NCBI GenBank assembly: GCA_030550395.1
Contig: JAUQPL010000006.1
Location: 4,624-68,623, forward strand
From: Bacteroidota bacterium
GTDB lineage: Bacteria; Bacteroidota; Ignavibacteria; Kapaibacteriales; HRBIN21
Reading direction: 5' to 3'
Length of the DNA stretch: 64,000 nucleotides
The notes beneath the pieces were generated by a model that saw nothing but the letters and a program-made list of their open reading frames with translations, had not been told where the DNA came from and ran no database searches. Positions 2,158 through 23,576 of the stretch are shown piece by piece (positions within the stretch are counted from its first letter, which is position 1; the number at the start of each line of letters is the position of its first letter). Position numbers and translations under genes: made by a program.

Positions 2158-3468
2158 TTACGGTTCGGGTGGGAAGAGTTGACGCCCGCGGACGAAGACC
2201 CTTTGGATGGCTGCTGGCGTTGCGGTGTAGAGAAGGCGCATCAGTAAGCTTTCTGGGTCTGTCCGCAAGGGGTGCTGAGGTTCTAAGGTAGCAAGGTCCA
2301 TGACGATGAAGTCAGCGTCTTTGCCAGACTCAAAGCTGCCGATGGAACTATCTAAACCCAGGGCTTGGGCTCCTCCGAGAGTAGCAAGCCAGAGGGCTTC
2401 CTCGGGGCTGATTTCTGTCGGGGTTTCTTCGGGAGCTATAAAGCTTCGCAACTTTGCCATTTCTCGGGCGTAACGGGCCTCTTCGAGGATGAAGGGAGAA
2501 TATCCCGCGCCGATATCGCTTCCGAGTCCAATGCGGAGGCCGAGATCCAGGTAACACCGCAGAGGCATGATTCCGCTGCGGAGAAAGACGTTGGAGCGTG
2601 GGCAGTGGGCGATGGCACATCCGGCAGAGCGCAGTTGTGCTTGCTCCGAGGGGGAAAGGTAGAGGCAGTGCGCCAAGATGGTTCGTGATGTCAGCAAGCC
2701 AGCGGCATCGTAGATGGCAGTGTAGGTAGGAAAGTGGGGAAATTGTCCGGCAATCCAGCGTATCTCAGGCAGGCTCTCTGCCAAGTGCGTTTGCACTGGG
2801 AGCTCATACCGGTGGGCGATATCGGCACAAAGTCGGAGTAGCTCCAAAGAGCAGCTGCCAGCAAAGCGTGGGGAGACGGCATATAGAAGGCGCCCATAGT
2901 CATAGCCATGCCACTGGGCAAGGAGCTTTTCCAGCGCCTGGGGAGCATCTTCCGTGCGAATCCGAAGCTCCGGAGGCACGTTGGTATCCATGAGCGTTTG
3001 TCCCATGAGCACGCGTAGCCCTATCCGGGCAGCTGCGGCGAAGGCTTGCGAAGTTGCCTCAGCAAAGGGAGGCCCGAAGACCATAAGGGTAGTTGTCCCA
3101 CACCGAAGTGCAGCTTGGAAGAAAAGCTCCGCTTGCTGTTCGGCAAACTCTGGGTCTGCAAACCGTGCTTCCAAAGGGAAGATGAGGGTGTGCAACCATG
3201 GGAGGAGTTCTCCGGAATCAATGGCTATGGCTTGGTATTGGGGCAAGTGCGTGTGGACATCCACAAAGCCTGGTAGGAGGAGGCTTCGGGGACCGAAATC
3301 ACGAACTATCGCATGGGGGAAGCGCTGCTGGAGTTGTGTGGCCTCTCCCAGCGCTTGAATACGCCCTGCAGAATCTACGGTGAGAGCGCCGTCGTAGATA
3401 CAAGTGACCCGACGCTCTCTGGTAGGGTTAAGAATGTATCGAGCTCGGTACAGAACCGGATGCCCCAT
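2158..3468 (-). CDS. amidohydrolase, guanine deaminase-like
   Basis: Metal-binding GFVDVHTHLPQ (HxHxxQ) and the HLAES motif (QTHLAESLPE) are characteristic of the guanine/cytosine deaminase-chlorohydrolase subgroup. The first ATG is at 3468 (MGHPV...); the track's 3501 start is a TTG. Confidence 0.6.
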   Translation of the reverse strand: MGHPVLYRARYILNPTRERRVTCIYDGALTVDSAGRIQALGEATQLQQRFPHAIVRDFGPRSLLLPGFVDVHTHLPQYQAIAIDSGELLPWLHTLIFPLEARFADPEFAEQQAELFFQAALRCGTTTLMVFGPPFAEATSQAFAAAARIGLRVLMGQTLMDTNVPPELRIRTEDAPQALEKLLAQWHGYDYGRLLYAVSPRFAGSCSLELLRLCADIAHRYELPVQTHLAESLPEIRWIAGQFPHFPTYTAIYDAAGLLTSRTILAHCLYLSPSEQAQLRSAGCAIAHCPRSNVFLRSGIMPLRCYLDLGLRIGLGSDIGAGYSPFILEEARYAREMAKLRSFIAPEETPTEISPEEALWLATLGGAQALGLDSSIGSFESGKDADFIVMDLATLEPQHPLRTDPESLLMRLLYTATPAAIQRVFVRGRQLFPPEP

Positions 3469-3922
3469 AGGTTTGGGGTTCGTCGGCAGTGGCGCTGACA
3501 ATGACGGTTTTCAAAAGTTCAAGGCTTGCTTCGGCAGGAAGCACCGCAGAGGAGACAGGCAGTGGGGTTGTGTCCGACGAGGCAATTGACCAAGACCCCA
3601 GCTTCGGAGAAACATTGTGCCTCAGGAGCCAGCAAGGGAACGTGCTGGGAATGCTACTTTCAAGCGAGCAGCTACAGCCCAGATACAGCGGAGTTCTGTC
3701 CAGCGAGAACATCCGTTGCTGAGCTGACGACGGCTGGGGTGAGAGCGTTGCAGATTGTCGGTAAAGGAAATTTGGAATGCGATAGCCCCCATTCCCGTCA
3801 ATGTTGTAGCTCAATCCTGCAGCGGTTAGTTGCCGGGCAACGCGTAGGTCTGTAGAACCCAGAACCTGTGCCCATGCAGTAGAGGAGAGGAGCCCGAGAA
3901 CAAAGCAACACGGGAGAAGCAT
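3428..3922 (-). CDS. hypothetical small secreted protein (signal peptide, then S/P-rich tail)
   Basis: The first ATG gives MLLPCCFVLGLLSSTAWAQ (signal-peptide-like) and begins 53 nt downstream of the Cyc2-like gene on the same strand. The C-terminal half is low complexity and overlaps the guaD-like start by about 40 nt, so it is weakly supported. Confidence 0.25.
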   Translation of the reverse strand: MLLPCCFVLGLLSSTAWAQVLGSTDLRVARQLTAAGLSYNIDGNGGYRIPNFLYRQSATLSPQPSSAQQRMFSLDRTPLYLGCSCSLESSIPSTFPCWLLRHNVSPKLGSWSIASSDTTPLPVSSAVLPAEASLELLKTVIVSATADEPQTYGASGSVPSSIHS

Positions 3923-3974: not shown

Positions 3975-5069
3975 TCAGTAAGCGAAGTCTACCCCCACAG
4001 TCAGCCGCGTGAGAGGATTGTGGAATTGGCGTTCTATTTCTGCCAACAGACGCACGTTCCGGTAAGGGTAGTAGCTGTATTGTAGTGCTGCTGACCGATG
4101 GCGGAGGGATTGGTAAATGGAACCGTCGGGAGCATGGATTAGGTTAGCAAGGAAGGCGATGGCGTGCGGGAAGTCTATGTACTCTATCCCCAGGAAGCCT
4201 CCGTACAGGGTATGGCTTCGGGAATTGTCGTATCCGTAGAGGGCTTGGAAGAAGAGCTCTGTGTTATCCCAGAAGTTCCACCGCCAGTCTAACCCGATCC
4301 GGTAGCCGCGGATAATCCTGCCGGCCGTGTCAGGCACTTCTCCATAGAGACCAAACACCCCCAATTGGAGGGGAAGGGCAATGTGGCCGAAGAGGACCTT
4401 ACGGTTGTCGGCGTCGGCGTCTTCACCGATGTACTCTCCTATGCCATTTCCGTTGACAATGCCCAAAGCAAGGTCCCATGGAAGGCTGAGGATGAGTCCC
4501 CTCTGATACGTGAGGGGGAAGCGTCCGACTTTATAGATGAGGTAGTCGCTCCGGGTCAGTCGGAGCTCACGGGGGAACATGAGGTCGCAGAGTTGGAATT
4601 GCCCAATCTGCAGTCCCCAACCTGCCCACGGGTGGAGGTGGACCCAGGCATCTTCGAAAAAGGGAGCCTCACCCTTTTCAAAGATGACGTAGGCGTAGAA
4701 AGAAACCTGAGGTCCCAGGGCTCCCCCGGTCAGCAATTTGACTGCCCAAGGGGCTTTGAAATCTTGACGCCATTGGCGATTCTGGGTTCGGAGCTCCAAC
4801 CATTGCTGGAACCGAGCAGCCAGAGGTACTCGGTCAAAGAGATTCAGTTGGTCGTCACCTGTATTGGGTACGTACGCCTTTTCTTGCATGCCCTCAAAGA
4901 TGTAGCCGCCGGCGGAGAATTGTTGCCCGAAGGCGTTGAGTTTTGGGAAGGCAACGTGGCAAGTTGCACAAGATAATCCGTACTGGCGGGCAAAGGCGGG
5001 GATAGCATCAGCAGAGGGAGGCAGGAGAAGGCAAAGGCATACACTGAGCAGGGAAAGAGCCAAAGTCAT
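3975..5069 (-). CDS. Cyc2-like fused monoheme cytochrome c / outer-membrane beta-barrel (candidate Fe(II) oxidase or extracellular electron-transfer porin)
   Basis: Signal peptide MTLALSLLSVCLCLLLPPSADA, then AFARQYGLSCATCHVAFPKLNAFGQQF with a single CXXCH at the mature N-terminus. The rest is amphipathic and Gly/aromatic-rich and ends ...LTVGVDFAY (aromatic C-terminus typical of OM beta-barrels). A strong SD (GGAGGAG, 5-nt spacer) precedes the ATG at 5069. Confidence 0.55.
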   Translation of the reverse strand: MTLALSLLSVCLCLLLPPSADAIPAFARQYGLSCATCHVAFPKLNAFGQQFSAGGYIFEGMQEKAYVPNTGDDQLNLFDRVPLAARFQQWLELRTQNRQWRQDFKAPWAVKLLTGGALGPQVSFYAYVIFEKGEAPFFEDAWVHLHPWAGWGLQIGQFQLCDLMFPRELRLTRSDYLIYKVGRFPLTYQRGLILSLPWDLALGIVNGNGIGEYIGEDADADNRKVLFGHIALPLQLGVFGLYGEVPDTAGRIIRGYRIGLDWRWNFWDNTELFFQALYGYDNSRSHTLYGGFLGIEYIDFPHAIAFLANLIHAPDGSIYQSLRHRSAALQYSYYPYRNVRLLAEIERQFHNPLTRLTVGVDFAY

Positions 5070-5095
5070 GGTGTCTCCTCCAGCTCGATGGGACT

Positions 5096-6586
5096 TTATT
5101 GGATAACGGAAACCTCAACCCTTCGGTTCTGGGCGCGTGCTTCCTCAGAGGTACCCGGCACTAATGGGCGCCGGCGTCCCCATCCCTTTGTCTCAATGCG
5201 TCGGGATTCAATCCCATTACGCACCAAGTACTCTTTGACTGCATCGGCACGGCGTTGGGAGAGCCGGTCGTTGTAAGCGTCGGTGCCGACGTCATCGGTA
5301 TGCCCCTCAATGAGGATGCGTACGGAGGGATATGCTTTGAGGAAGTCTACCAACCGTTCCAGGTCGGGTATAGACTCTTCTTTCAGCTCAGCTTTGTCAA
5401 AGTCAAAGAAGACCAGGAGGCGAGTCCGACCGTGCTCTGCAGGAGTGAGGCGGATATCCTTCGTGATAGGGTTCTCCGTTATATTGCGCCCGACCTCAAA
5501 GCGTTCGCTGTAGAAGAGATAGCCCTCACGGGAGGCGGTCACAGAGTACGTCCGTCCAGCGGGGAGAGCAACGTAGTACTCACCTGTTTCTTCGTCGCTA
5601 TAAAGTTCGGCGATTTTCCGGCGCGTCCGGAGGTCAGTAATTGTAATGACAGCTCCCAGGGGACGCTCTGTATCGGCATCGCGGACAGTGCCTTGGACCA
5701 TTAGAACCGGTTCCGGAGGATTGGGGTTAGGAACGACGAGAAAGACGTCGAGGTCACCATCTGCTGTGGTGCGGCTCAAAAGAGCAGCGTTGCGGTCCGG
5801 TAGGGGAACGTAGAAGTATTCATCGGCGGCTGTGTTAATAGGAGAGGCTAACTTTTGGGGGCGCTCGAACCGGCCGTCAGCCCCCATACGACTGACGAAG
5901 ATGTCGAAGTTTCCATCCCGATTGGAAGCAAAATAGAGTGTCTTGCCATCGGCGGCCAGGACAGGCGCCATATCGTCGGCGTCAGAGTTGAGGGTTCGGA
6001 GCTCTATTGGAGTAGACCAACGATTTCCTTCACGACGGCACATCCATAAGTCTGTGCCTCCTGAGCCTCCGGGGCGGTCGGAAGCGAAGACGAGAAGTGT
6101 CCCATCGGCAGCAATACAGGGCTGGGAGTCCCAATAGGAGGAATTGACGGCTGGGCCAAGATTTTCTACTCGGGACCAGCGGTCGCCGGAGCGCCGCGCA
6201 AGGTATAGGTCGGTGCGTCCACTACCTCCGAGCTCATGCTGGAAGGCTGCAAAGAGCATCAAGTTCCCGTCCACAGTAAGGCTTGCGCTGCCTACGTGGG
6301 TGGCGTCCGCAATGGTGCCAGAGATACGCTCTGGAGCATGCCAGCGGTCACCATGACGTTCCACGCGGTAGAGGCGCTGGCGCCCTCCTGCACGACTGGA
6401 GGTGAGGAATACCTCCCGCCCGCCGCGGCTGACGCTGGTGACGAAGTCATCACCGGAAGAATTCAGCTCGGGCAAAGGGGTAACCTGAATTGCTGTTCCG
6501 GTCGGACGCACTTGAGTTTGGGCCCAGGTCGGGGAAGCTATAGTGGCTGCAAGCAGAGCGAGGACAGGGGCAACAGCGGTGTACAT
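5096..6586 (-). CDS. OmpA-family outer-membrane protein with PD40/TolB-like beta-propeller repeats and a CarboxypepD_reg-like domain
   Basis: Repeated ...FASDRPGGSGGTDLW.../...YFASNRDGNFDIFVS... (PD40 repeats) and a C-terminal OmpA_C domain ...ILIEGHTDDVGTDAYNDRLSQRRADAVKEYL...RRVEVSVIQ. The start is refined to the ATG at 6586 (MYTAVAPVLALLAATIASPTWAQ signal peptide), which has a GGAGG SD upstream. Confidence 0.8.
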   Translation of the reverse strand: MYTAVAPVLALLAATIASPTWAQTQVRPTGTAIQVTPLPELNSSGDDFVTSVSRGGREVFLTSSRAGGRQRLYRVERHGDRWHAPERISGTIADATHVGSASLTVDGNLMLFAAFQHELGGSGRTDLYLARRSGDRWSRVENLGPAVNSSYWDSQPCIAADGTLLVFASDRPGGSGGTDLWMCRREGNRWSTPIELRTLNSDADDMAPVLAADGKTLYFASNRDGNFDIFVSRMGADGRFERPQKLASPINTAADEYFYVPLPDRNAALLSRTTADGDLDVFLVVPNPNPPEPVLMVQGTVRDADTERPLGAVITITDLRTRRKIAELYSDEETGEYYVALPAGRTYSVTASREGYLFYSERFEVGRNITENPITKDIRLTPAEHGRTRLLVFFDFDKAELKEESIPDLERLVDFLKAYPSVRILIEGHTDDVGTDAYNDRLSQRRADAVKEYLVRNGIESRRIETKGWGRRRPLVPGTSEEARAQNRRVEVSVIQ

Positions 6587-6599
6587 GGCTGCCTCCGAA

Positions 6600-7463
6600 C
6601 TACAAATCAAACCAGAGTCCCAAGAGGAGCTGTATGGAATGCTGTGATGCATTGCGTAGCCGAACGTTGTACAGCCCTTCAGAGAACCATTTCCACCCGT
6701 CGCTGCTTTCCATGTCTTCGCGGAAAGAGGAGAGGAGTTGGAGCTGGAGCCGTGGGACAAGCCATAGTTTGGGGTTTAGTGGTATTGCATAGCCAGCCCC
6801 TAATTCCGCACCGATGCGGGAGCTTTTCATAGGAGGGGAGTTGATTTCTAGTTCAACCTCCAGCTGCCGGTATAGCCGATTATCCTCTGGGTTGAGGAAT
6901 CCGCAGTTGCTGGTCTCTGGGACAGAGTACTTTGTCTTTTGCCGATTACTTCGGTGAAAGTGGGCGACAATGCCAGCGGTGAGCCAAAGCTGGGCAGAGA
7001 CGTTGTAGCGTATTCCTGCCCCAGCGGTAAGGTAGTTCGTTGTGAAGGTCCAATCTACAGAAACCGGCACTGTGGTGATGATGGTAGGGTCATAGAGATT
7101 CTGACAGTCTGCTTCAGCCGTGCCGGAGTGCCCCACAGTTTTGACGTCGTACCCTACGTGCAGTCGGAGCCCGAGGTTGGGGGTGAGACCAATGTCGGCA
7201 AGGATGCGGACGGCAGGCGAGAGCCCGTTACCGCTTTTGAACAGCTGCGGGGGGGTATTGGTCGGTGCAGGGGTGGGTTGGTACTGTAGGCTTTGTGAGG
7301 CGGTGTTCCAATTTACTCCTCCTTCAATACCGAGCATGATGGGTAGTGGGCGTTCTCTTACCGGCGCGAAGGCTGGGGCACCGCGGGGACGTAGAATGTC
7401 CTCTTGGGCAATGGCGGGGAGGGTCAACAGGAGGAGACCGAGCACCGTACTCCGGGAACGCAT
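6600..7463 (-). CDS. outer-membrane beta-barrel protein (small OMP)
   Basis: Signal peptide MRSRSTVLGLLLLTLPAIAQ, alternating hydrophobic pattern and C-terminal ...LLLGLWFDL. It lies 13 nt upstream of the PD40/OmpA gene on the same strand. Confidence 0.5.
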   Translation of the reverse strand: MRSRSTVLGLLLLTLPAIAQEDILRPRGAPAFAPVRERPLPIMLGIEGGVNWNTASQSLQYQPTPAPTNTPPQLFKSGNGLSPAVRILADIGLTPNLGLRLHVGYDVKTVGHSGTAEADCQNLYDPTIITTVPVSVDWTFTTNYLTAGAGIRYNVSAQLWLTAGIVAHFHRSNRQKTKYSVPETSNCGFLNPEDNRLYRQLEVELEINSPPMKSSRIGAELGAGYAIPLNPKLWLVPRLQLQLLSSFREDMESSDGWKWFSEGLYNVRLRNASQHSIQLLLGLWFDL

Positions 7464-7531
7464 AGTAACCTCACGAATGGCTTAACAAGCGGCTTCAAAA
7501 TTACTGCGGAAGGATCAGCCGAGGCAGTAGA

Positions 7532-9610
7532 GTGGGAAAACGGTTCCGTAATTTTGCCAAGAAGCGCAATCCATGGGCACTGGGAGTGTGGGGAATTGTG
7601 ATACTGCTTGGCTGCGTGCTGGGAAGTTCCGCTCAGCAGCGGAGCTGGCGGGTGTTTTTTCTTGACAAAGGACCGGAGCCGTTCTCTATAGGGAGTCCGC
7701 TGTACGAGCAGACGCTAAGGCTTCATACTCCCCGGGCGTTGGTGCGGAGAGCATGGGTTCGAGGAGGTGATTCGCTCCTTACGTTGGCGGATGCCCCCGT
7801 ATATGAGCCTTACATTGATAGCCTTCGGCGCCTGGGTGCCTCGGTTCGATTGCGGGTGCGTTGGAATAACTATGTCGTGGTAGAAGCAGATTCCGTAATT
7901 GTAGAGCGTTTGCGGGGGCTCCCATTTGTTGCTGCCGTACAGCCGACGCATCAGGTGCCTTTACCGCGTACCCGTGTGCGGGTTACCTCCGGGGAGAGAG
8001 GCTCCGGGGGAGAGACGCTCCCTGTAGTGTGTGGGGAGCTGGACTACGGGGCTTCGTGGAGGCAGGTGCAGATGCTGGAGGTGCCGTTCCTCCATCGGAT
8101 GGGCTTCACGGGAGATAGTGTTCTTGTGGGGCTTTTGGACACGGGGTTTCGCTGGCGGGGACATCCGGCGTTTGAGCACATAGCCGTGGTAGCGGAATGG
8201 GATTTCCTCCAAGGGGACTCGGTGACGGCGAATGAAGGGACGGAGCATCCCTTGCAGGATACTCATGGCACGATGGTGCTATCTGTCGTTGGAGCTTTCT
8301 GGCCGGGGCAGCTTATTGGGGTCGCCCCAATGGCTCGGTACATCTTGGCGAAGACGGAGGATATTAGCCGGGAACGACACGTGGAGGAAGATGCGTATGC
8401 GGCAGCCATAGAGTGGATGGAGGCACTTGGTGTGGACGTTATTTCTTCCTCCCTGGGCTACCGGGATTTTGATAGCTTGGAGGTGTCGTATACTACTGAG
8501 CAGTTGGATGGGCGCACGACTATTGTCGCCCGGGCGGTAACGATGGCGGCGCAGCGAGGGGTGATATGTGTGACGGCGATGGGGAACGATGGTCGGCGTG
8601 GTTTAGTCTCGCCGGCGGATGCCGATAGCGTAGTTGCGGTGGCTGCTGTTGACAGTACGGAGCAATGGGCGCCGTTTAGCTCGGTGGGATTTCGGCAGCG
8701 CGGTGTCCTCCGTCCCACGGTAGCGGCAATGGGGGTCTCTGTCGTGGCTGCGGGACCTCGAGGGCAATGGGTGCGAGCGTCGGGGACCTCACTGGCAACA
8801 CCGCTGGTGGCGGGGACATTAGCCTTGCTCATTGGGGCGCGCCCGGACGTTCCCCCGTGGCGGATTCGCCAGGCCCTCTTGGAGACAGCATCCCGCGCTC
8901 GGGCACCCGACACCTTGGTCGGCTACGGGGTCCCCCGAGCCGCGCAGGCATTGGCTTCGTTGGGAGGTGCTTTAGGAACGCCCGCTGTCTGGAAGCTGCC
9001 TTCAGGAGCTATACGAGTTGCCTGCTATGGGTTTATCCCCTTCCGCTCGTTCCATGCGTGGCTTCAGTGGGCAGCTCAGCCAAGGGAGGATGCTGTTGAG
9101 GGGTATCTTCTGATGCGGGTCACCGGGGATAATGGGATGCCGTTGCTGTATGGGGATCTGCCCGGGGTGCTGCTCCAGCGGGGGCAACCTGTGTGGATAC
9201 AGGTGTGGGTTGAGAGCGCGGAGGGGAAGAAGCTGTCCAGCCGGTGGTATGTCCTTCCTCAGCAACCTAGTTTCCCATGTGGAGTGGAGATTCCAGAGTC
9301 CGTACTCCATGGGGGTGAAGACCAAGGCAGGACAGTGCAGATTCTGCCTCACCCTGTGATGGCTGGGCAGGAGTGTGTTGCGCGTGTGCCGGGTATATAT
9401 CCGGGGAGCCAGCAGCCATTATCCTCGGTTTGTCTTTGGGACATGACGGGGCGTTTAGTCGAGTGCGTATCGCTTCTACCCGAGAGACTGGGCCAGGTTC
9501 CAGAGTGGACAGTACGGCTTCCAACGGCGAGACTCTCCCCAGGTCTCTATTGGGTAGAGGCTACGTACGGTAAAGCGGAGCGCTTGGGGGCTCCACTCAT
9601 TTTGTACTGA
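7532..9610 (+). CDS. S8 family subtilisin-like serine peptidase with T9SS C-terminal sorting domain
   Basis: Catalytic triad contexts GLLDTGF (Asp), HGTMVLSV (His) and GTSLATP (Ser). The C-terminal ~80 aa ...SPGLYWVEATYGKAERLGAPLILY matches the Por_Secre_tail pattern. GTG start with a basic n-region and hydrophobic signal peptide. Confidence 0.85.
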   Translation: MGKRFRNFAKKRNPWALGVWGIVILLGCVLGSSAQQRSWRVFFLDKGPEPFSIGSPLYEQTLRLHTPRALVRRAWVRGGDSLLTLADAPVYEPYIDSLRRLGASVRLRVRWNNYVVVEADSVIVERLRGLPFVAAVQPTHQVPLPRTRVRVTSGERGSGGETLPVVCGELDYGASWRQVQMLEVPFLHRMGFTGDSVLVGLLDTGFRWRGHPAFEHIAVVAEWDFLQGDSVTANEGTEHPLQDTHGTMVLSVVGAFWPGQLIGVAPMARYILAKTEDISRERHVEEDAYAAAIEWMEALGVDVISSSLGYRDFDSLEVSYTTEQLDGRTTIVARAVTMAAQRGVICVTAMGNDGRRGLVSPADADSVVAVAAVDSTEQWAPFSSVGFRQRGVLRPTVAAMGVSVVAAGPRGQWVRASGTSLATPLVAGTLALLIGARPDVPPWRIRQALLETASRARAPDTLVGYGVPRAAQALASLGGALGTPAVWKLPSGAIRVACYGFIPFRSFHAWLQWAAQPREDAVEGYLLMRVTGDNGMPLLYGDLPGVLLQRGQPVWIQVWVESAEGKKLSSRWYVLPQQPSFPCGVEIPESVLHGGEDQGRTVQILPHPVMAGQECVARVPGIYPGSQQPLSSVCLWDMTGRLVECVSLLPERLGQVPEWTVRLPTARLSPGLYWVEATYGKAERLGAPLILY

Positions 9611-15440: not shown

Positions 15441-18400
15441 ATGCGCCGTGCGGTGCTATGGACTACTGTAGCGATGGTGGTTCTCTCTTCATCATTGTGG
15501 GCAGGCATCTACGGTGTCCTGGCGGGGAAGGTAACGGATAAAGAGGGGAAGCCTATCCCAGGCGCCACTATTCGCATTGAGGGGACAACCCTTGGCGGCT
15601 TCGCACGCCCGGATGGACGCTTCAGTATTGTGAATGTGCCGGCGGGCTCCTATACGGTAGTAGTCCGCGCCGTTGGTTACCGGGAAGTGCGGCTTCAGGT
15701 GCGGATTTCTGCTGACCAGACTACAGAGATCGCCGTGCAGTTGGAGCCAGAGGCTGTCCGGGTACAGGAAGTTACGGTGGAGGCAAAGGCTCCTTTGGTA
15801 GAAAAGTACGCCATTGGAACACTGCGCAACGTCACTTCGGAAGAACTCCGCAATATTCCACGGCAAACGGTGCAGCAGGTAGCTTTATTGACTCCTGGAG
15901 TCTTGGCAGCAGGCAATGGATTCATCGTTCGAGGGAGTCGGGCGATTGAAACTCAGATCCGCCTGGATGGGTTGGATATTGCTGATCAATTTGTGGGAGC
16001 CTTCGGCAATGGTGGCTTCCGTTATTTCCCGACGGTCAGCAACTTGGCGGTGGAGGAAGTGCAGGTGTTAACGGGGAATTTTGCGGCGGAATACGGTAAT
16101 GCTCTGGGTGGGGTGGTCAACACGGTCACGAAAACAGGGCGAACCGACCGTTACGAAGCAACGTTGCGGTTCTATACCGATGACATCGGTTTCCTTTACG
16201 GAACTGCGAGGAATGGGCTCCAGAGGCTACCTCAGAAAGAGTACAACTATGAACTTGCCTTCGGTGGACCAATTCCGTTGCTGAGTGGATCTACGTTTTA
16301 CTTGGCGGCGCAGTATGTCACGAATCGCCACCGCAACGCCGGACTGGATGTCAGGGATCCGTGGGGCAATAGTTGGGGACAGCTTCCGCAAGATCGGACC
16401 TGGATGCGTTCGCTGAGCGCGCGAGCCAAGTTTGCTTTAACCAAAGATGTGAGTCTCTTGCTCGGTGGTATGTTCGGTCTTACCGACTATGAACGTCCAT
16501 CCATCGGTTGGATGTATGCCCGGGATGAAGGGGTTGTGGATGGAGTCTCTAACGGTGTGCAGGAGTACTTCGCTAAGCGGGCTGTTATTGACCAGTTTGT
16601 GGGAAATGTACTGGCCCGTATTACCCATACACTTAGCCAGACCACGTACTACGAGCTGACGGTTTCCAACACGTGGAACGTCAACGAGGTATCCCGACGG
16701 TACTTAGCGTATGAACCTGGAAAAGGGTGGGTCAAAGGGTACTTTGACCGTCCCCATTTCTTTAAAGGCTTTGACCTTTGGTACCCGCAGGATGACTACG
16801 TCATTGAAGGAAATCAGCTCTTGCCAAAGGCTCTCCGAGGTGAGGTTGGGGACAAGGTCATAGACCATTACTCGCTGCTGACTGGACAGACGGTAAGCGA
16901 GGATGGATATCTCATTACTGTCCGACCTATTCGGCATCCATGGACGGGGTATGTGGAGGGGAGTAGCAATGCGACGAGCACGCGTAATCCATACGGGTTG
17001 CAGGCTTTCTTTGCCGCTGCTGGGAACGAGCGTGCTTTTGAGTTCCGCTATTCACAGTACTTCCAGGTAGACGGCTATATTACTAGCCGGGTCGAAGTTG
17101 GGGATATTGTCCACTTGCTCAAAGCTGGCTTTGAGACACGTTTTCTCACGCTGCATCATCACTACAACAGCCTTCCGTGGGATGGAAATGCCTTCTTTGA
17201 CGTGTATACCGATCGCTGGGGTGGCAATATCTATGCGGAAAACCGGCAGGTATGGGAGCTGACCAGCAAGCCATATAAGCCTTACACGATTGCCGCTTAT
17301 GTGCAGGATCAGTTCACCTACCGTGGGATGATCCTCAATCTGGGCTTGCGTTTTGACTACTTCCAGCCCAATGCGAAGTACCGGACCGAATCGCAGCGCT
17401 TTATCCCGATCCAAGAGCAGGCTTACTTTGCACCGGCAACGGCAAAGCTGCTGTTGAGTCCGAGGGTATCTATCAACTACCCTATTACTGAGCGCTCTAC
17501 CTTTTCGGTTGCCTACGGTATCTTCCAACAGATGCCGCAGCCGAATTTCCTCTACGATGCTCTTAACACCTTCCGACTACGGGGCAATCAGATCTTAGGC
17601 AATCCTAATCTGGGAACCCAGCGCAGTAACCAATACCAGGTTTCCTATGCCCATGCTTTGACGGAAGACTTCGCTGTGGATGTAACGGCCTTCTACAAGG
17701 ACATTTATAACCAGGTGGGGCTGCGGTATGTGCCTACGTTGCCAGACCCGTACTCAGAGTACACCGTTGCAGAGTATGGAAACGTGCGGGGAGTGGAAGT
17801 AAGGTTGCGGCGTCGTCCAGTAGGGAACTTCGCCTTTGACATCAACTACACCCTTTCCTATGCTCGGGGCACTGCTTCCGGACCCACAACACAGTATCGG
17901 CAGACGATCCTCTCTGGCGAGGACCCCTATACAGGTACAAAGACATTCCCGCTGACAGAGTACTTCTTGGACTACGACCGTCGCCATGTGGTCAACTTTA
18001 CCCTCTCCTTCTTCCTGCGCGAGGGTGAGGGTCCCTCCATTGCAGGACTGCGCCTTCTGGAGAACACAACGCTCAGCTTGACGGGATTCTTCCGTACCGG
18101 CACGCCATACACCCAACGTGATCGCCAAGGGAACCAAGTTGGAGAGTACAACGGCGCACGGCAGCCTTCGGATTGGACAGTGGACATGCGGCTGCAGCGA
18201 GCTATACCGCTTCGCTTACTCTTCGGTGAAGCCTTCCAAAATGCGACGTTGGAGCTATATGTGGATATCTTCAACGTGCTCAACAACACTAAGCCTGTGG
18301 CAGTCTACGAGCGTACAGGCAGTCCGGATTACGATGGGGTAGATCTCAATCGGCAAATTGGTGATTTCAGCATCGTGAACTGGTATAAGGACCCTGATCC

Positions 18401-18608
18401 GAACCGTCCCGAGACGTTTAGCCCAGCGCAGTACGACAGTTATGGGCGCCGTCTCTATTCACCCGATGCAGACTTCAACCGAGATGGTGTTGTTACCCAG
18501 GAAGAGAAATACCAGAGTTACCTGCGATGGGTGCGGGATACGATTGCCCGCCAGCTTAACTACCGCTTACCACGTTCGGTGAACGTAGGTTTTGTCCTGC
18601 GCTTCTGA
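15441..18608 (+). CDS. TonB-dependent receptor-like outer-membrane protein with N-terminal CarboxypepD_reg domain
   Basis: Signal peptide, CarboxypepD_reg-like segment (GKVTDKEGKPIPGATIRIEGTT...SYTVVVRAVGY), a plug-like region (...FIVRGSRAIETQIRLDGLDI...), a long beta-barrel and a C-terminal ...VNVGFVLRF. GAGGAG SD 5 nt upstream. Confidence 0.75.
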   Translation: MRRAVLWTTVAMVVLSSSLWAGIYGVLAGKVTDKEGKPIPGATIRIEGTTLGGFARPDGRFSIVNVPAGSYTVVVRAVGYREVRLQVRISADQTTEIAVQLEPEAVRVQEVTVEAKAPLVEKYAIGTLRNVTSEELRNIPRQTVQQVALLTPGVLAAGNGFIVRGSRAIETQIRLDGLDIADQFVGAFGNGGFRYFPTVSNLAVEEVQVLTGNFAAEYGNALGGVVNTVTKTGRTDRYEATLRFYTDDIGFLYGTARNGLQRLPQKEYNYELAFGGPIPLLSGSTFYLAAQYVTNRHRNAGLDVRDPWGNSWGQLPQDRTWMRSLSARAKFALTKDVSLLLGGMFGLTDYERPSIGWMYARDEGVVDGVSNGVQEYFAKRAVIDQFVGNVLARITHTLSQTTYYELTVSNTWNVNEVSRRYLAYEPGKGWVKGYFDRPHFFKGFDLWYPQDDYVIEGNQLLPKALRGEVGDKVIDHYSLLTGQTVSEDGYLITVRPIRHPWTGYVEGSSNATSTRNPYGLQAFFAAAGNERAFEFRYSQYFQVDGYITSRVEVGDIVHLLKAGFETRFLTLHHHYNSLPWDGNAFFDVYTDRWGGNIYAENRQVWELTSKPYKPYTIAAYVQDQFTYRGMILNLGLRFDYFQPNAKYRTESQRFIPIQEQAYFAPATAKLLLSPRVSINYPITERSTFSVAYGIFQQMPQPNFLYDALNTFRLRGNQILGNPNLGTQRSNQYQVSYAHALTEDFAVDVTAFYKDIYNQVGLRYVPTLPDPYSEYTVAEYGNVRGVEVRLRRRPVGNFAFDINYTLSYARGTASGPTTQYRQTILSGEDPYTGTKTFPLTEYFLDYDRRHVVNFTLSFFLREGEGPSIAGLRLLENTTLSLTGFFRTGTPYTQRDRQGNQVGEYNGARQPSDWTVDMRLQRAIPLRLLFGEAFQNATLELYVDIFNVLNNTKPVAVYERTGSPDYDGVDLNRQIGDFSIVNWYKDPDPNRPETFSPAQYDSYGRRLYSPDADFNRDGVVTQEEKYQSYLRWVRDTIARQLNYRLPRSVNVGFVLRF

Positions 18609-18665
18609 CAGCGTAACGCATAAGTTTATGAGAGATTGTCAAACTCAGGAGACGGGGGATATGTG

Positions 18666-21600
18666 ATGCGAGGGCGATGTGTTCTCTTACTTTGCATGCT
18701 TTTGGCTAGTATCTTGAGTACTCAGGCACGGACGCTACAGAGTGGAACGCCGCAAAAAGATAGCGATGCTGCCCAACCAATGCGTCTGGCACAGGGAACG
18801 TTTGAACAACGGAAAAACCGTGTTAGCCGTATAGAGTTCTATTCCACCAACTATGGCATCTTCGGGCTCAACATTGCGGCAAACCGCGGTGGGGGATTTT
18901 GGCCCCGCGGCTCGCAGAACCAGTATATCTTCGGCGGAGGAATTTGGTTCGCTGCCAAGAAATGGGTGCGAAATGAATTGCGCAAACTTGTGGTCCTCTC
19001 CTATAACCCTAACTCTGGAGCTTCGTGGATGGTGCCCGGGCGTATCGCTGACGGGGATGAGTATAGCGACGACCTGAAGGATAAATATCAGCTTTACTTT
19101 TCCACCGACTATGCACCGGATGGTACGCCTCTTCCGGAGAGAGCTGGAGAGCGTCCCCAAGGACCGAATTGGCCACTGTGGATTACCTCAGAGACAGAAA
19201 CACTAAAGGTTAATCGCTACTTTGGTGACTACGTTGATGACCTCGATAAGCGAAACGTACAAACATATCCCCGAGGTCCGGCTTTCATCTCGCAAGAAGA
19301 CATTTGGTCGGTTTTCAAGGACACAGATTTGCGGCGTTACGAAGGCGGGGTTGCCGTTCGCCGCTCACAGGGGTATCCGCTGCGGGTAGAAATTGAGCAA
19401 ACTATCTACTCGTGGGGCTTTGGGGATTACGGGGACTTCATCTTCCTGAAGTACCTCATCATCAATCGTTCGCGGGACACTTTGTGGGAATGCTGGATGG
19501 CGCCGGCAATGGATTTTGATATTGGTCCGGCGAATAACCCCGTGGGGATTGCTGGAAATGACCGAGTACGCTTCTACGACGAGGACCCCAGTCTCAATTT
19601 GGCCATTCAGTGGAGTAATCCCGATCAGGGTGAGGGAGGAAAGGGCTTTGGATATCTAGGGATGACCTTCCTAGAGAGCCCTGCTGTGGACCCGATGACG
19701 GGGTTCATCCGAAAGGATAAGCGTTTCTATCCTCTACAGGAGCAGCTAGGGTTAGTGACGTTCCGAAACTGGGTTATCCAAAACGACCCTTCGGGAGATG
19801 AAGAGCGATACGACTTTATGGCTGCCCGTATTCGCGATGGCGATACAGGACCTGGCGATAAGCGCTTTCTGATGGCAACGGGGCCTTTCAACATGGCGCC
19901 AGGAGATACAGCACGGGTAGTCGTTGGGCTGGTATTGGCTCCGACTTCTACGGGAGCCGATCCGAGAGGCTCCGGTGATTTGGATGAATTGGTGCGCAAG
20001 GTCCGTTTTGCACAGGCAGTCTATGATGGTGGGTTCAAGGCCCCTGTGCCACCGGATCGCCCCAATATTAGTTGGACTCCTCTCAATGGAGGAGTTGTTA
20101 TCCGGTGGGACTCCACGGCGGAGTACTCTTACGATGATAGCGAGCGAGGGCTGGACTTTTTGGGATACCGGCTCTATCGTGCGCGGCGGATGGACTTGGA
20201 TTCCTTTGATGTAGACAATCGCCCTTCCATCGCCCGGGGACCCTTTGGCTGGAAGGAAATTGCTCGGTGGGAAGTCCCGTATCCGTTCGTAAAGAAGAGT
20301 GACCGACCGTTGTTGGCAGGCGTCAGTAAGAATCCCCTCATAGACTCTCTCATTTTCCTCCGCCAATCGGATACGGCAGGCTTCAGTGTGGAGGTAGCTC
20401 GCGTGGGGTATGGAGGGGAGCCGTGGGGAGAGTTCTGGCAGAGCCTGGATCCGAATGTGCGTAACCGTTACCTCCAAGGCCGGGTAGAAATCAGCCGCGC
20501 ACTGACGGGAGGTCGTGGACTGAAGCGAGCGGATTTCGCTACAACGGAGGAGTTCCTCAACGCCCTCTATGACTACATCCAGCAAGGAAAGGCGACGGTG
20601 ATTTTCCCCGATTTTGATGACGACCCCGATTTGCGGCAGCGTGTCCGCCAGACCATTGCTCGGTATATGGCCCGTGTTACCAATAACCGCACGTTTGTGG
20701 ATGTCGGGGATGATAACCGAGACGGTGTGGTAGAGGATCACCCCGATCCAACCCGAACGGAGCGGCTTTTCAATAATGTGGACTACTACTACCGGTTGTT
20801 GGCGTATGACGAGGGCGATCTCATCCAACGGACTCCGGGCAAACTCAATATTGGGGTAGCAGGGGTCAACGTCGTCCAGGCTTTCCCCCGCTCAGCTCCT
20901 GCTAGCGAGGCGGCAACGGTTACGATCACGGCAGAAGACCGTGATAAGCTGGGTGGTATTTACAATCTCCGCTTCTTGGTTCAGGACCCGCAACGGCTCC
21001 AGCAGCTTTTTGCCGGACACGAGTTGGAAATTGAGTTCCAACCTCTTTGGTTTGGGACCGCTTTCTTTGCCCCTTCCGGGATGGTCAATGGGATTTATGC
21101 CCGTGAAATCATCCTCCGTGATCTTACAACCGGCACGGAGTTAGGTCGGTATCAGACACTCTTTGAACCGACTCAATGCCAAAGTAGCGTATTGGGAATG
21201 CCATCGGAGTTTGCGGGGGTTTCTACAGGTGATACGACCCAGGGAATCGGGCGCCTTGATACGGTCGGATATATCCAGCGAACAGGGACCTTTCGGACCG
21301 ACGCGGTATGCAATGCTCCGGATCAATATGTCTTCGGTACACTTGGCTTTGCCTTTGACTATGCTCTGCAACAGTGGGCGGGTCAGTACCGTCCCTACAG
21401 GGCGCAACGGCGAACGGCAGGGCCGGTCGATGTACCCGTCTATCCCGATCGTACACAAGTGCAGCTAACACAGCCGGACCCTGTCACGGGCCGGTATGTG
21501 AGCTTTAACAATGGTCCGGCGCGGTACTTGGTAGTCCTGGAGCCTGGGGGTGTAGAGACGGTGACAATCACATGGAATTCAGGGAGGAACTCCAAAGAAG

Positions 21601-22493
21601 TGCAGGTGCCGTACTACAATATCCGGGTGTTTAATGACCTCAGCTTTGAGCGTCTCGATCCCGAAACGGGGCAACCAGTCAAGGTGCACTATCCGGGTGA
21701 ACTGCAGCGGGTAGATCTCAGCCTGACGCGGGGTACAGGACCGGATGCTCGGCAAGTGCCGATAGGAGCTTACGGCTTTGCTGCTGTACCGTGGGTTAAC
21801 GGACGGAGTGCCGATGGGATTAGCCAGCGTCGGACGCAGCTGGGGGATTGGATGCCGCAACAGGGGCGTTACTACCTGTCGGTGATTGATGGAACGGATA
21901 CAGTTGACTTTGTCCACGTCTTCGTTGCTTCCGGGTGCCGCTTCGTTGTGGATTTTGCCAATAAGCGCGGGTGGAGTGTATCGCCGCTGGCGGGAGTAGA
22001 GAGAGCGCCGCTACAGCCCACTCAGGACTTCCAAGCGGGAGATACGATTGTGTTTGAAACAACCGGTGGGGCACTGGGCTTGCCGCTGCCAGGGGCGAAG
22101 ATTCGGGCTCGGGTTAGCCAACCGACACCGCTGGAGAATATCACTGACGCGCTGTTGGAACAGCAAGTCAAAGTTGTGCCGAACCCCTACTACGTAACCC
22201 ATCAAGCCCAGCGCTCTCAGTATGATGCGAAGATCTTCTTCACTCGGTTGCCTGAGCGATGCACGATCCGCATCTACACGCTCGCTGGGGCACTAGTCCG
22301 GACTTTGGAATATGATGCTCGTACGGCGCAGGAGGTGGGGCGCCTAGGAGTAGCAATCTGGGACCTGCTCTCGGATAACCTGCAGCGGGTTGCCAGTCAA
22401 GCATTCGTTGCGCACATTGAAACTCCTAACGGTGCTAAAGCCGTGATCCCCTTCAGCGTTGTCGTTGGTGGAATTCGGCAAGTTCCAGAGTAA
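18666..22493 (+). CDS. large secreted protein with T9SS C-terminal sorting domain; candidate PorU (T9SS C-terminal signal peptidase) by synteny
   Basis: 1276 aa from the ATG at 18666 (MRGRCVLLLCMLLASILSTQA signal peptide; AGGAG upstream). The CTD begins ...VKVVPNPYY... (KVYPNP-type start). The gene ends 18 nt before a PorV-family gene, which is the conserved porU-porV arrangement. The C25 catalytic residues were not verified by eye. Confidence 0.45.
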   Translation: MRGRCVLLLCMLLASILSTQARTLQSGTPQKDSDAAQPMRLAQGTFEQRKNRVSRIEFYSTNYGIFGLNIAANRGGGFWPRGSQNQYIFGGGIWFAAKKWVRNELRKLVVLSYNPNSGASWMVPGRIADGDEYSDDLKDKYQLYFSTDYAPDGTPLPERAGERPQGPNWPLWITSETETLKVNRYFGDYVDDLDKRNVQTYPRGPAFISQEDIWSVFKDTDLRRYEGGVAVRRSQGYPLRVEIEQTIYSWGFGDYGDFIFLKYLIINRSRDTLWECWMAPAMDFDIGPANNPVGIAGNDRVRFYDEDPSLNLAIQWSNPDQGEGGKGFGYLGMTFLESPAVDPMTGFIRKDKRFYPLQEQLGLVTFRNWVIQNDPSGDEERYDFMAARIRDGDTGPGDKRFLMATGPFNMAPGDTARVVVGLVLAPTSTGADPRGSGDLDELVRKVRFAQAVYDGGFKAPVPPDRPNISWTPLNGGVVIRWDSTAEYSYDDSERGLDFLGYRLYRARRMDLDSFDVDNRPSIARGPFGWKEIARWEVPYPFVKKSDRPLLAGVSKNPLIDSLIFLRQSDTAGFSVEVARVGYGGEPWGEFWQSLDPNVRNRYLQGRVEISRALTGGRGLKRADFATTEEFLNALYDYIQQGKATVIFPDFDDDPDLRQRVRQTIARYMARVTNNRTFVDVGDDNRDGVVEDHPDPTRTERLFNNVDYYYRLLAYDEGDLIQRTPGKLNIGVAGVNVVQAFPRSAPASEAATVTITAEDRDKLGGIYNLRFLVQDPQRLQQLFAGHELEIEFQPLWFGTAFFAPSGMVNGIYAREIILRDLTTGTELGRYQTLFEPTQCQSSVLGMPSEFAGVSTGDTTQGIGRLDTVGYIQRTGTFRTDAVCNAPDQYVFGTLGFAFDYALQQWAGQYRPYRAQRRTAGPVDVPVYPDRTQVQLTQPDPVTGRYVSFNNGPARYLVVLEPGGVETVTITWNSGRNSKEVQVPYYNIRVFNDLSFERLDPETGQPVKVHYPGELQRVDLSLTRGTGPDARQVPIGAYGFAAVPWVNGRSADGISQRRTQLGDWMPQQGRYYLSVIDGTDTVDFVHVFVASGCRFVVDFANKRGWSVSPLAGVERAPLQPTQDFQAGDTIVFETTGGALGLPLPGAKIRARVSQPTPLENITDALLEQQVKVVPNPYYVTHQAQRSQYDAKIFFTRLPERCTIRIYTLAGALVRTLEYDARTAQEVGRLGVAIWDLLSDNLQRVASQAFVAHIETPNGAKAVIPFSVVVGGIRQVPE

Positions 22494-22511: not shown

Positions 22512-23576
22512 ATGGTGCGTGCATATACCCTTGTCCTGGTGCTCTTTGCTGCTACAGCTGAATTGGTAGCTCAGCTCTATGCTCCTTCAGCGGGGAAGTT
22601 CAAGAAGGTGGGTGCTGCTGGTTCGCAGTTCCTGAAGCTTGCTGTTGGGGCCCGAGCTGTTGGGTTAGGGGGAGCCGGGAGTGCGGTCAATGACCTGACG
22701 GCTGTCTACTGGAACCCTGCCGGGATTGCTGATGTGAAGAGTATCAGTGGACATTTCTCGTACACGCAATGGTTTGGTGGCTTCTCCCACCAATTTGCAG
22801 CGGCTTCCGTTCCGTTGGGTGAAAATTACTGTATTGCTCTCAGCTTGGTTAGCTTTACCAGTGGGGATATTCCCGTGACTACCTTGGAGCAGCCCGATGG
22901 AACGGGGGCAACGTATACGATCTCCGATATAGCAATCGGAGCAACCTTTGGGGGAAGGATCACGGAGCAGTTTTCCTTCGGAGTCACAGGACGCTTTGTG
23001 CAGAACGGCCTCTTGAATGTCTCCAGCACGGGGCTAACCTTTGATGTTGGAACGCTGTATCAGACGGATTTCTACGGGCTACGGCTTGGCTTTTCGGTGC
23101 ACAACTTGGGACCAGACATGCAGTATTCGGGACAGGGGCTCTACCTGCAGCGTCGCCTTTTGGATGCCCTCAACGCTGATCCGACAGCAATAAGTATTGT
23201 GACGAATCCGTATGCGGTTCCTCTTATGTTCCGTGCTGGTATTGCCTTTGACCTCCTCAGCGTCATCCAGGGGAAGCAGGAGACTCCTAAACTGTATGCG
23301 GAGGGGCATCAGACCCATCGGCTCATCACCGCTGTGGATTTTGAAACCTATTCTGACGTTCCCGAGCAGTTCGCCGTTGGGATGGAATACACATGGAACG
23401 AGCTTCTCTCGGTGCGGGCGGGCTATCGGTTCGGGAATGACCAAATGGGGCTCACCGCAGGTGTTGGAGTCCGCTACATTGGCAGCGGCTTCCGGGGGCA
23501 GATTGATTATGCCTTGACACCGACTCGGTTGTTGGGATTGGTGAACCGGCTGAGCCTGACGCTGAGTTTGGAGTAA
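22512..23576 (+). CDS. porV: PorV/PorQ-family T9SS outer-membrane protein (FadL-like beta-barrel)
   Basis: N-terminal ...AAGSQFLKLAVGARAVGLGGAGSAVNDLTAVYWNPAGIA... matches the PorV/LptO signature (GARAxxxGGA...YWNPAG). Signal peptide and a GGTGGAGGG SD are present. Confidence 0.7.
   Translation: MVRAYTLVLVLFAATAELVAQLYAPSAGKFKKVGAAGSQFLKLAVGARAVGLGGAGSAVNDLTAVYWNPAGIADVKSISGHFSYTQWFGGFSHQFAAASVPLGENYCIALSLVSFTSGDIPVTTLEQPDGTGATYTISDIAIGATFGGRITEQFSFGVTGRFVQNGLLNVSSTGLTFDVGTLYQTDFYGLRLGFSVHNLGPDMQYSGQGLYLQRRLLDALNADPTAISIVTNPYAVPLMFRAGIAFDLLSVIQGKQETPKLYAEGHQTHRLITAVDFETYSDVPEQFAVGMEYTWNELLSVRAGYRFGNDQMGLTAGVGVRYIGSGFRGQIDYALTPTRLLGLVNRLSLTLSLE

Follow-up and report, generated by a model that had tools for sequence, protein, structure and literature searches.

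What does a Cyc2-like gene signify when it is found in a lineage with no known iron oxidiser? No genetic marker for microbial Fe(II) oxidation is in wider use than Cyc2, but what the presence of Cyc2 means outside the group of sequences called Cluster 1 is disputed. The question is raised here by a stretch of 64,000 nucleotides (nt) from contig JAUQPL010000006.1 of a Bacteroidota bacterium, hereafter called the window, which carries on its minus strand (3975..5069) an open reading frame (ORF) that starts with ATG and encodes a protein of 364 amino acids (aa). Public records annotate this product solely as a ‘hypothetical protein’. We believe that it very probably belongs to the Cyc2 family of fused monoheme cytochrome c-porins. 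The more difficult issue is whether membership in this family should be read as a capacity for iron oxidation.

According to the definition given by Keffer 2021 (mBio), a Cyc2 protein has a signal peptide, one CXXCH heme motif, the sequence AXPXFAR[Q/K][T/Y], a PXL motif downstream and a 16-strand porin resembling OprO/OprP, and the AXPXFAR[Q/K][T/Y] sequence is stated in the same work to be unique to Cyc2. All of these features, including a predicted signal peptide and barrel, are present in the window protein, as is homology to validated Cyc2. The translated product begins MTLALSLLSVCLCLLLPPSADA|IPAFARQYGLSCATCHVAFPKLNAFGQQF, where the bar marks the predicted cleavage site, and it ends in GVDFAY. 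The signature runs from A22 to Y30 and is followed by three residues and then by the first heme Cys, and CXXCH occurs once in the entire protein. A preliminary description of this locus had reported, without stating the strand, a 364-aa product with a signal peptide, a single CXXCH near the mature N-terminus and a GVDFAY end, and had suggested that the residues flanking the heme motif resemble the conserved Cyc2 block; our reading of the ORF agrees on each of these points. Signal peptides of close homologs, for example P0002 and P0008, carry basic residues in the n-region.

The same description had anticipated an outer-membrane β-barrel, and an AlphaFold2 (AF2) model of the 364-aa protein is indeed a barrel of 16 strands, with a predicted local distance difference test score (pLDDT) of 87.8. 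Low pLDDT values are found for residues 14-24, which span the predicted cleavage region. The most conserved motif of the barrel (GQFQxxDLMFPRELRLT) lies in a long loop after strand 5, where G156, Q157, F158, Q159, D162, R167, E168, R170 and D175 are invariant in a 37-sequence alignment. By analogy with general porin topology, this loop appears to sit at the position of an L3-like constriction loop and may have a similar role.

The family to which the protein belongs is large and conserved. A database search returned 323 homologs, and when the family profile was searched exhaustively against 1.84 billion cluster representatives, 4,244 proteins reached E<=1e-3, of which 1,892 also reached E<=1e-10. 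Throughout the 37-sequence alignment mentioned above (A1), in which identities range from 34 to 75%, C34, C37, H38, P24, F26, R28, Y30, P42, L44, G48 and F51 are invariant, as are a number of residues in the barrel. Each of the 119 full-length homologs has exactly one CXXCH within its first 120 residues, and the spacing of the elements around it (R-x-x, three residues, CXXCH, three residues, PxL) is constant in all 119. In 114 of them, the chain ends in F or Y. The expectation that orthologs would retain the CXXCH is therefore borne out, both in 37 of 37 aligned sequences and in 119 of 119 full-length homologs. Because the heme motif is invariant in the alignment and occurs once at identical spacing in every full-length homolog, it is, judged by its conservation, not a chance match.

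Homology to a biochemically validated Cyc2 can be demonstrated directly. Fe(II) oxidation in vitro has been shown for Cyc2(PV-1) of Mariprofundus ferrooxydans, which has a midpoint potential (Em) of ~208 mV (Keffer 2021). We used the concatenated mass-spectrometry peptides of this protein (Keffer 2021 Table S1) as bait, and the search recovered two M. ferrooxydans orthologs (P0121 and P0122) as well as ~170 Zetaproteobacterial Cluster 1 sequences. In a BLASTP comparison with P0121, the window protein aligns over 62 N-terminal aa with 47% identity (E 4e-12). When a profile of the cyc2-like family was compared with a Cluster 1 Cyc2 profile by using hhalign, the match extended over 107 columns with a probability of 98.2% (E 4.4e-14).

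A second line of comparison comes from the native Cyc2 of Acidithiobacillus ferrooxidans, whose mature N-terminus was established as LPSFARQ by Edman sequencing (PMC3084935). The cleavage predicted for the window protein, ADA|IPAFARQ, corresponds exactly to this experimental N-terminus, and therefore the conserved ‘A’ of the Cyc2 motif would be the -1 residue of the signal-peptidase site. The conserved motif thus starts at the site of cleavage, such that the mature N-terminus is itself conserved.

Searches of Pfam, NCBIfam and Protein Data Bank sequences with the protein and with the family profile gave no match. However, genuine Cyc2 likewise gives no match in Pfam or NCBIfam, which contain no Cyc2 model, and these negative results are uninformative because genuine Cyc2 is equally unmodelled. 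Given the motifs, the predicted barrel and the profile homology, the claim of the preliminary description that the architecture is diagnostic of Cyc2 stands with regard to family membership. It does not stand as a diagnosis of Fe(II) oxidation, since the homology is N-terminal only and the family is common in organisms not known to oxidise iron. What the architecture identifies is the family, and iron oxidation does not follow from it.

The relevance of this distinction depends in part on the type of Cyc2 involved. Within Cluster 1 (Zetaproteobacteria, Gallionellaceae and Chlorobium), sequences share 25-53% identity (Keffer 2021 Fig. S7). On sequence grounds, the window protein falls outside Cluster 1 because its barrel is unalignable, because the spacing between the heme His and the following Pro is three residues rather than the four of Cluster 1, and because its C-terminus is aromatic rather than M or L. 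It likewise lies outside the Burkholderiales/Hyphomicrobiales (Cluster 2-like) type. A tblastn search of plasmids and chromids found that homologs from Ralstonia, Caballeronia and Methylocystis match residues 21-68 solely, and a BLASTP comparison with the Caballeronia homolog covers residues 13-59 only (49% identity, E 7e-12). The literature ties the Burkholderiales and Hyphomicrobiales homologs to A. ferrooxidans Cyc2 in Cluster 2, and the reference data set also includes many Burkholderia, Ralstonia and Xanthomonas sequences (Keffer 2021). From this literature we infer that the Ralstonia, Caballeronia and Methylocystis homologs are Cluster 2 proteins.

Because the window protein is of neither type, and because the taxon spread of its family fits, it is probably Cluster 3-like, an assignment made by elimination and taxon spread. 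The family is spread among sulfur-oxidising Gammaproteobacteria, metagenome-assembled genomes (MAGs) of Gallionellaceae and many Ignavibacteriales, and FeGenie studies have reported Cyc2-positive Ignavibacteriales in Cluster 3-dominated communities. No placement of homologs from the Fibrobacteres-Chlorobi-Bacteroidetes (FCB) group is given in the literature consulted on iron-oxidation evolution and sequence similarity networks. According to the literature, Zetaproteobacteria carry only Cluster 1 and Cluster 3 cyc2 genes. A family member assigned to a ‘Mariprofundaceae bacterium’ MAG (P0081, MDX8410793.1) was considered as a Zetaproteobacterial anchor for Cluster 3 and was dropped, as its nearest named relatives are Gammaproteobacteria. 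This protein is ~58-64% identical to sequences from Thiohalobacter, Steroidobacter denitrificans and Thiobacillaceae, its closest matches are two unnamed metagenome proteins (81-83% identity), and no named Zetaproteobacterial isolate was found among its relatives. This pattern suggests lateral transfer or a binning error in the MAG.

The closest relatives of the window protein come from a Candidatus Kapabacteria MAG (74% identity) and from Bacterium HR21 (75% identity), and the next group, at 42-52% identity, comes from MAGs labelled WOR-3 or Thermotogae/Thermotogota. Together these sequences form a compact clade of 347-398 aa, compared with ~385-460 aa for the remaining family. Size matters because Cyc2 surveys apply a length cut-off of 365 aa, which is an operational and technical filter meant to ensure room for the porin. 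Both FeGenie and the reference Cyc2 tree set their minimum at 365 aa and discard anything shorter (the FeGenie preprint gives 375 aa). At 364 aa, the window protein is one residue below this filter, and 15 of the 119 full-length family members also fall under it. Because many of its members fall below the filter, although the window protein has a complete predicted barrel, the compact clade is probably under-represented in Cyc2 surveys. A bolder proposal would be that the clade represents a distinct, uncatalogued branch of Cyc2, often under the filter, lacking a redox partner and residing in a conserved operon with a PorE-like anchor. We consider this proposal unlikely at present, but if it were true, then iron or electron-uptake capacity in thermophilic FCB-group heterotrophs would have been systematically overlooked.

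How might such a protein function? The explanation that we favour, with some confidence but with considerable reservation, is that this Cyc2-family cytochrome-porin takes up electrons from a reductant in solution, most likely Fe2+. The protein would be exported, its heme would be covalently attached in the periplasm, and its Sec signal peptide would be cut so that the mature chain begins with IPAFARQ. Once the barrel has inserted in the outer membrane, the heme segment would lie either at the periplasmic mouth of the barrel or within it. The segment probably packs against the periplasmic mouth or lumen because ~55 residues are too few for an independent cytochrome domain. The reductant, which would have to be small, would pass the charged loop (D162, R167, E168, R170 and D175) as it enters the pore and would reduce the heme, which would hand its electron to a soluble periplasmic carrier encoded elsewhere and thereby to a terminal oxidase or reductase. 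The genes for a small outer-membrane barrel protein and for a PorE-like PD40/OmpA peptidoglycan anchor are probably co-transcribed with the cyc2-like gene, and these partners may keep the conduit in place in the envelope. That Fe(II) oxidation is the physiological role of the protein is plausible, and we advance this particular point only tentatively.

Several observations weigh against this proposal. Alignment with validated Cyc2 is limited to the first ~60-107 residues, which comprise the heme segment and first strands, and the BLASTP comparison with P0121 gives no barrel alignment. The His-to-Pro spacing differs from that of Cluster 1, as noted above. The signal peptide is atypical in that its n-region lacks both Lys and Arg, and the sequence upstream of the ATG offers no in-frame start. 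The family alignment holds no invariant Met or second His that could serve as a distal heme ligand: M164 is kept in 76% of the family, and the residues kept in 100% are K111, Y30, Y125, Y127 and Y188. One possibility, by analogy with cytochrome f, is that the free N-terminal amine might take part as a heme ligand. There is no other CXXCH-containing ORF of at least 90 aa in the 64-kb window, and no gene for a periplasmic cytochrome, high-potential iron-sulfur protein (HiPIP), cupredoxin or oxidase is found near the cyc2-like gene. Furthermore, the family is common in taxa not known as iron oxidisers, such as Microbulbifer, Steroidobacter denitrificans, Thiohalophilus and Ignavibacteria. Cluster 3 cyc2 genes also occur in iron reducers, as the FeGenie authors have noted, and the function of divergent Cluster 3 homologs has been called ‘most uncertain’ (Keffer 2021).

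These considerations invite other explanations, the best supported of which emerges from the gene neighbourhoods of the wider family. We compared 80 related genome loci and recognised the family gene in 68, of which 30 have an ORF with a heme motif within 3 kb. In ~24 of those 30 (24-26 of the 80 loci), a secreted pentaheme cytochrome of ~450 aa is encoded directly upstream on the same strand, 9-180 nt away. Its five heme motifs consist of four CXXCH and a first motif that is either CX3CH or CXXCH, and it has c7/c554/NapC-like heme domains in Pfam and a weak NCBIfam match to Geobacter ExtKL. The hosts are Ignavibacteria, Melioribacter, Bacteroidota, a Chlorobiota MAG, Thermoanaerobaculia, KSB1 and Glassbacteria (loci L008, L012, L016, L017 at 6532-7890, L019, L021, L027 at 6361-7788, L028, L030-L032, L036, L039, L040, L044, L047, L050, L056, L064, L066, L071 and L078). 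The pentaheme cytochrome and the monoheme cytochrome-porin may constitute an undescribed two-gene porin-cytochrome conduit, and no description of such a module was found in the literature searched.

Given this association, the window protein could be a general or outward electron conduit of the outer membrane rather than an Fe(II) oxidase. Such a conduit might reduce extracellular Fe(III), Mn or humics, or might oxidise Mn(II) or other soluble reductants, with partner multiheme cytochromes encoded elsewhere. In keeping with this view, Ignavibacteria and Melioribacter are known Fe(III) reducers, Cluster 3 cyc2 genes are present in the iron reducers Geobacter and Rhodoferax and in the Mn-oxidising Ca. 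Manganitrophus, and related porin-cytochromes such as Mto/Mtr may be reversible. However, the pentaheme neighbour is missing from the window and its closest relatives (L001-L004) as well as from most proteobacterial loci, and no other heme gene is near the members of the window clade. Moreover, a single heme in a narrow 16-strand barrel is unable to span the membrane to reach solids (Keffer 2021). We therefore regard this alternative as unlikely for the window protein, even though it preserves the same type of protein.

Heme partners of other kinds are found at the Cluster 2-like loci, where genes for c4-type cytochromes lie downstream of the cyc2-like gene; in Caballeronia, a HiPIP gene also lies upstream of it. 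On plasmid pSBC1_3 of Caballeronia sp. SBC1 (L085, NZ_CP049159.1, 2917-4260), the order is HiPIP, cyc2-like gene and a diheme c4-like cytochrome gene. The ‘cytochrome C’ record from this locus (WP_206366205.1) has a RefSeq start that falls after the CXXCH, leaving the product without signal peptide and heme site, and the open frame reaches upstream to MVTQMKS...ARA|LPAFARQTGLACVACH. On a plasmid of the methanotroph Methylocystis sp. MJC1 (L086, NZ_CP107559.1, 2824-6144), a gene for a 552-aa Cyc2-like protein (AVPSFARQTGQPCATCH) is followed by three c-type cytochrome genes. A 747-aa ORF at another locus (L049, 6927-9170) was considered as a fusion and rejected, as its upstream part is a spurious Arg-rich extension in high-GC DNA and the real start is MNPRARRAALMLG.

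The neighbourhood of the window gene itself has a different character. The upstream gene encodes a protein with PD40 repeats, a CarboxypepD_reg domain and an OmpA C-terminal domain, and its stop at 5096 leaves a gap of 26 nt to the cyc2-like gene. Since this gap holds no terminator-like or promoter-like site, the two genes are likely to be co-transcribed. The close spacing and the strong ribosome-binding site (GGAGGA, 6 nt before the ATG) are as the preliminary description had reported, and its remark that no cytochrome partner is encoded nearby is upheld by the single CXXCH ORF of at least 90 aa in 64 kb. The order of genes is an S8 subtilase (divergent), a 287-aa barrel protein, the PD40/CarboxypepD_reg/OmpA protein, the cyc2-like protein, a 164-aa ORF and an amidohydrolase. 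An identical cyc2-like protein is present on nine contigs from several metagenomes with the gene order unchanged, and the order is also kept in the Kapabacteria (L001) and HR21 (L002) genomes, although the 164-aa ORF was not found in the former. Linkage to an OmpA gene was considered as a family-wide trait and rejected, as it is confined to the window and these two genomes. In A. ferrooxidans, the OmpA-family protein FopA was purified together with native Cyc2 as part of a peptidoglycan complex (PMC3084935). The presence here of an operon neighbour with an OmpA domain may parallel that association, but this should be taken as an analogy and not as evidence.

This setting invites consideration of a heme-porin that serves no respiratory purpose and instead contributes to Fe(II) detoxification or protection from reactive oxygen at the cell surface, or to redox sensing or gating, within a cluster for maintenance of the outer membrane and peptidoglycan, with no energy conservation. 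The conserved operon partners are envelope proteins (the small barrel and the PorE-like PD40/OmpA anchor) rather than respiratory ones, and subtilase and amidohydrolase genes adjoin. In addition, relatives in the Kapabacteria are described as non-phototrophic Bacteroidota, with lithotrophy unreported in the literature searched, and many hosts of the family are heterotrophs. Against this, no Cyc2-family precedent for such a role was found, and the genes that share an operon with an outer-membrane protein often say little about it. A catalytic redox role would account at least equally well for the strict conservation of the heme segment and charged loop, which is seen in more than 1,000 sequences. 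We judge a non-respiratory role to be decidedly unlikely. Finally, an ordinary general porin with a fortuitous CXXCH and no bound heme, which the lack of a Pfam or NCBIfam cytochrome match and the similarity of the barrel to general porins might seem to favour, is extremely improbable, because the CXXCH and at least 10 flanking residues are invariant down to 34% identity, the segment is homologous to that of a biochemically proven heme-containing Cyc2, and genuine Cyc2 also lacks such database matches.

The features of the cyc2-like gene and its surroundings are collected in Table 1.

Table 1. Positions of the cyc2-like gene, its sequence elements and other genes in the window
Feature	Position	Strand	Basis or remark
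cyc2-like coding sequence, 364 aa, fused monoheme cytochrome c and 16-strand porin	3975..5069	minus	ORF, 323 homologs, AF2 model
Shine-Dalgarno GGAGGA, 6 nt before ATG	5076..5081	minus	direct sequence reading
Signal peptide, aa 1-22, MTLALSLLSVCLCLLLPPSADA, predicted cleavage ADA|IP	5004..5069	minus	hydrophobic core and AXA site, by eye
Cyc2 signature A-I-P-A-F-A-R-Q-Y, aa 22-30 (= AXPXFAR[Q/K][T/Y])	4980..5006	minus	motif per Keffer 2021
Heme c motif CATCH, aa 34-38 (C34-H38)	4956..4970	minus	37/37 aligned sequences; once in 119/119 full-length homologs
P-K-L, aa 42-44 (PXL motif)	4938..4946	minus	P42 and L44 invariant; motif per Keffer 2021
N-terminal heme segment, aa 23-80, with small helices at 25-30, 34-37, 46-53 and 62-65	4830..5003	minus	AF2 secondary structure
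16-strand β-barrel, aa 83-363, ending GVDFAY	3981..4823	minus	
Long loop after strand 5, aa 156-188, GQFQxxDLMFPRELRLT	4506..4604	minus	AF2 position between strands 5 and 6
PD40 repeats, CarboxypepD_reg and OmpA_C protein (PorE-like, peptidoglycan-anchoring outer-membrane protein), 496 aa	5096..6586	minus	Pfam, NCBIfam, public gene call
Small outer-membrane β-barrel protein, 287 aa, first gene of the conserved cluster	6600..7463	minus	weak OMP_b-brl and autotransporter-barrel matches; kept in L001 and L002
Small secreted ORF downstream, 164 aa, without family match	3428..3922	minus	present in Bacterium HR21 locus (L002)
TonB-dependent-receptor-like protein with CarboxypepD_reg and Plug domains	15441-18608		
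ORF of 1285 aa without Pfam match	18636-22493		
PorV/PorP-like protein	22512-23576		

The PorE-like match of the PD40/CarboxypepD_reg/OmpA protein reaches 206 bits against a cut-off of 600 bits. A mechanical ORF call for this gene (5096-6760, 554 aa, TTG start) overlaps the gene for the 287-aa barrel protein, and the public call of 496 aa avoids the overlap. The assignment of the host to the FCB group with a type IX secretion system, made in the preliminary description, is supported by the PorE-like neighbour, the PorV/PorP-like gene and a GWxTD-domain gene, and by the nearest genomes, which are those of Candidatus Kapabacteria and Bacterium HR21. The genes between 15441 and 23576 form a cluster with a connection to outer-membrane transport and type IX secretion. 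Scans of the 64-kb window, whose GC content is 56%, detected neither tRNA genes nor Rfam families at the gathering threshold.

Homologs of Cyc2 are already known to be very widespread, with 1,593 in the reference tree (Keffer 2021), and to occur in organisms not known to oxidise iron, and thus it is fair to ask what one more example contributes. The gene adds a well-supported member of the family in Kapabacteria, an uncultured lineage of the hot-spring type for which no link to iron cycling was found in the literature searched. Furthermore, because a complete 16-strand cytochrome-porin can fall below the 365-aa cut-off, marker surveys of hot springs and the subsurface may undercount the compact clade. 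If the protein is an iron oxidase, then lithotrophic or mixotrophic use of Fe(II) would extend to thermophilic relatives of Chlorobi and Bacteroidota. Even if it is not, the protein should provide a useful negative control for the limits within which the Cyc2 marker can be trusted.

It is instructive to compare the Cyc2-like protein proposed here with related systems. The Cluster 1 proteins of Zetaproteobacteria, Gallionellaceae and Chlorobium ferrooxidans resemble it in having a signal peptide, xPxFARQ[T/Y], three residues, CXXCH and PXLNxFG in succession. The Cyc2(PV-1) peptide ...QTGAACLSCH has the same spacing from motif to Cys, and the long internal loop after strand 5 is another shared trait. 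In contrast, the Cluster 1 barrel is unrelated to that of the window protein at the sequence level, its C-terminus is mostly M or L rather than the aromatic Y or F of the window family, and its total length is ~405-430 aa rather than 364 aa. The hosts also differ, since the window derives from a heterotroph lineage of the Kapabacteria type with no known iron oxidiser.

The mature N-terminus of A. ferrooxidans Cyc2 (LPSFARQ) is similar to that predicted here (IPAFARQ), and the homologs from Caballeronia and Methylocystis have spacings on both sides of CXXCH (3 and 3 residues) that are identical to those of the window protein. The association with an OmpA-family protein is physical for A. ferrooxidans Cyc2 and genomic for the window gene. 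A. ferrooxidans has a full rus operon and the Cluster 2-like loci encode c4-type cytochromes and HiPIP, whereas the window encodes no redox partner, and the Cluster 2-like proteins are longer, at 446-552 aa. The Cluster 3 homologs, with which the window protein probably has its closest affinity, include Leptospirillum Cyt572, those of Nitrospira, Ca. Manganitrophus, Ca. Tenderia and Geobacter, and second copies in Zetaproteobacteria. Of these, Cyt572 is notable for its unusual heme and its long branch.

Other systems share either the barrel or the electron-transfer logic of this protein. Its 16-strand, OprP-like barrel resembles general porins, and the phosphate-selective OprP and OprO as well as the general 16-strand porins Omp32, PorB and OmpU have 8-14% sequence identity to it. 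All of these porins lack the N-terminal heme segment and CXXCH, and the invariant motif in the loop after strand 5 is specific to the window family. MtrAB, MtoAB, PioAB and the Geobacter Pcc/Ext systems likewise combine a heme protein with an outer-membrane barrel to move electrons across the membrane. However, those systems use separate polypeptides, 26-strand barrels and decaheme or multiheme wires that reach solids (Keffer 2021), whereas the window protein unites one heme and 16 strands in a single polypeptide.

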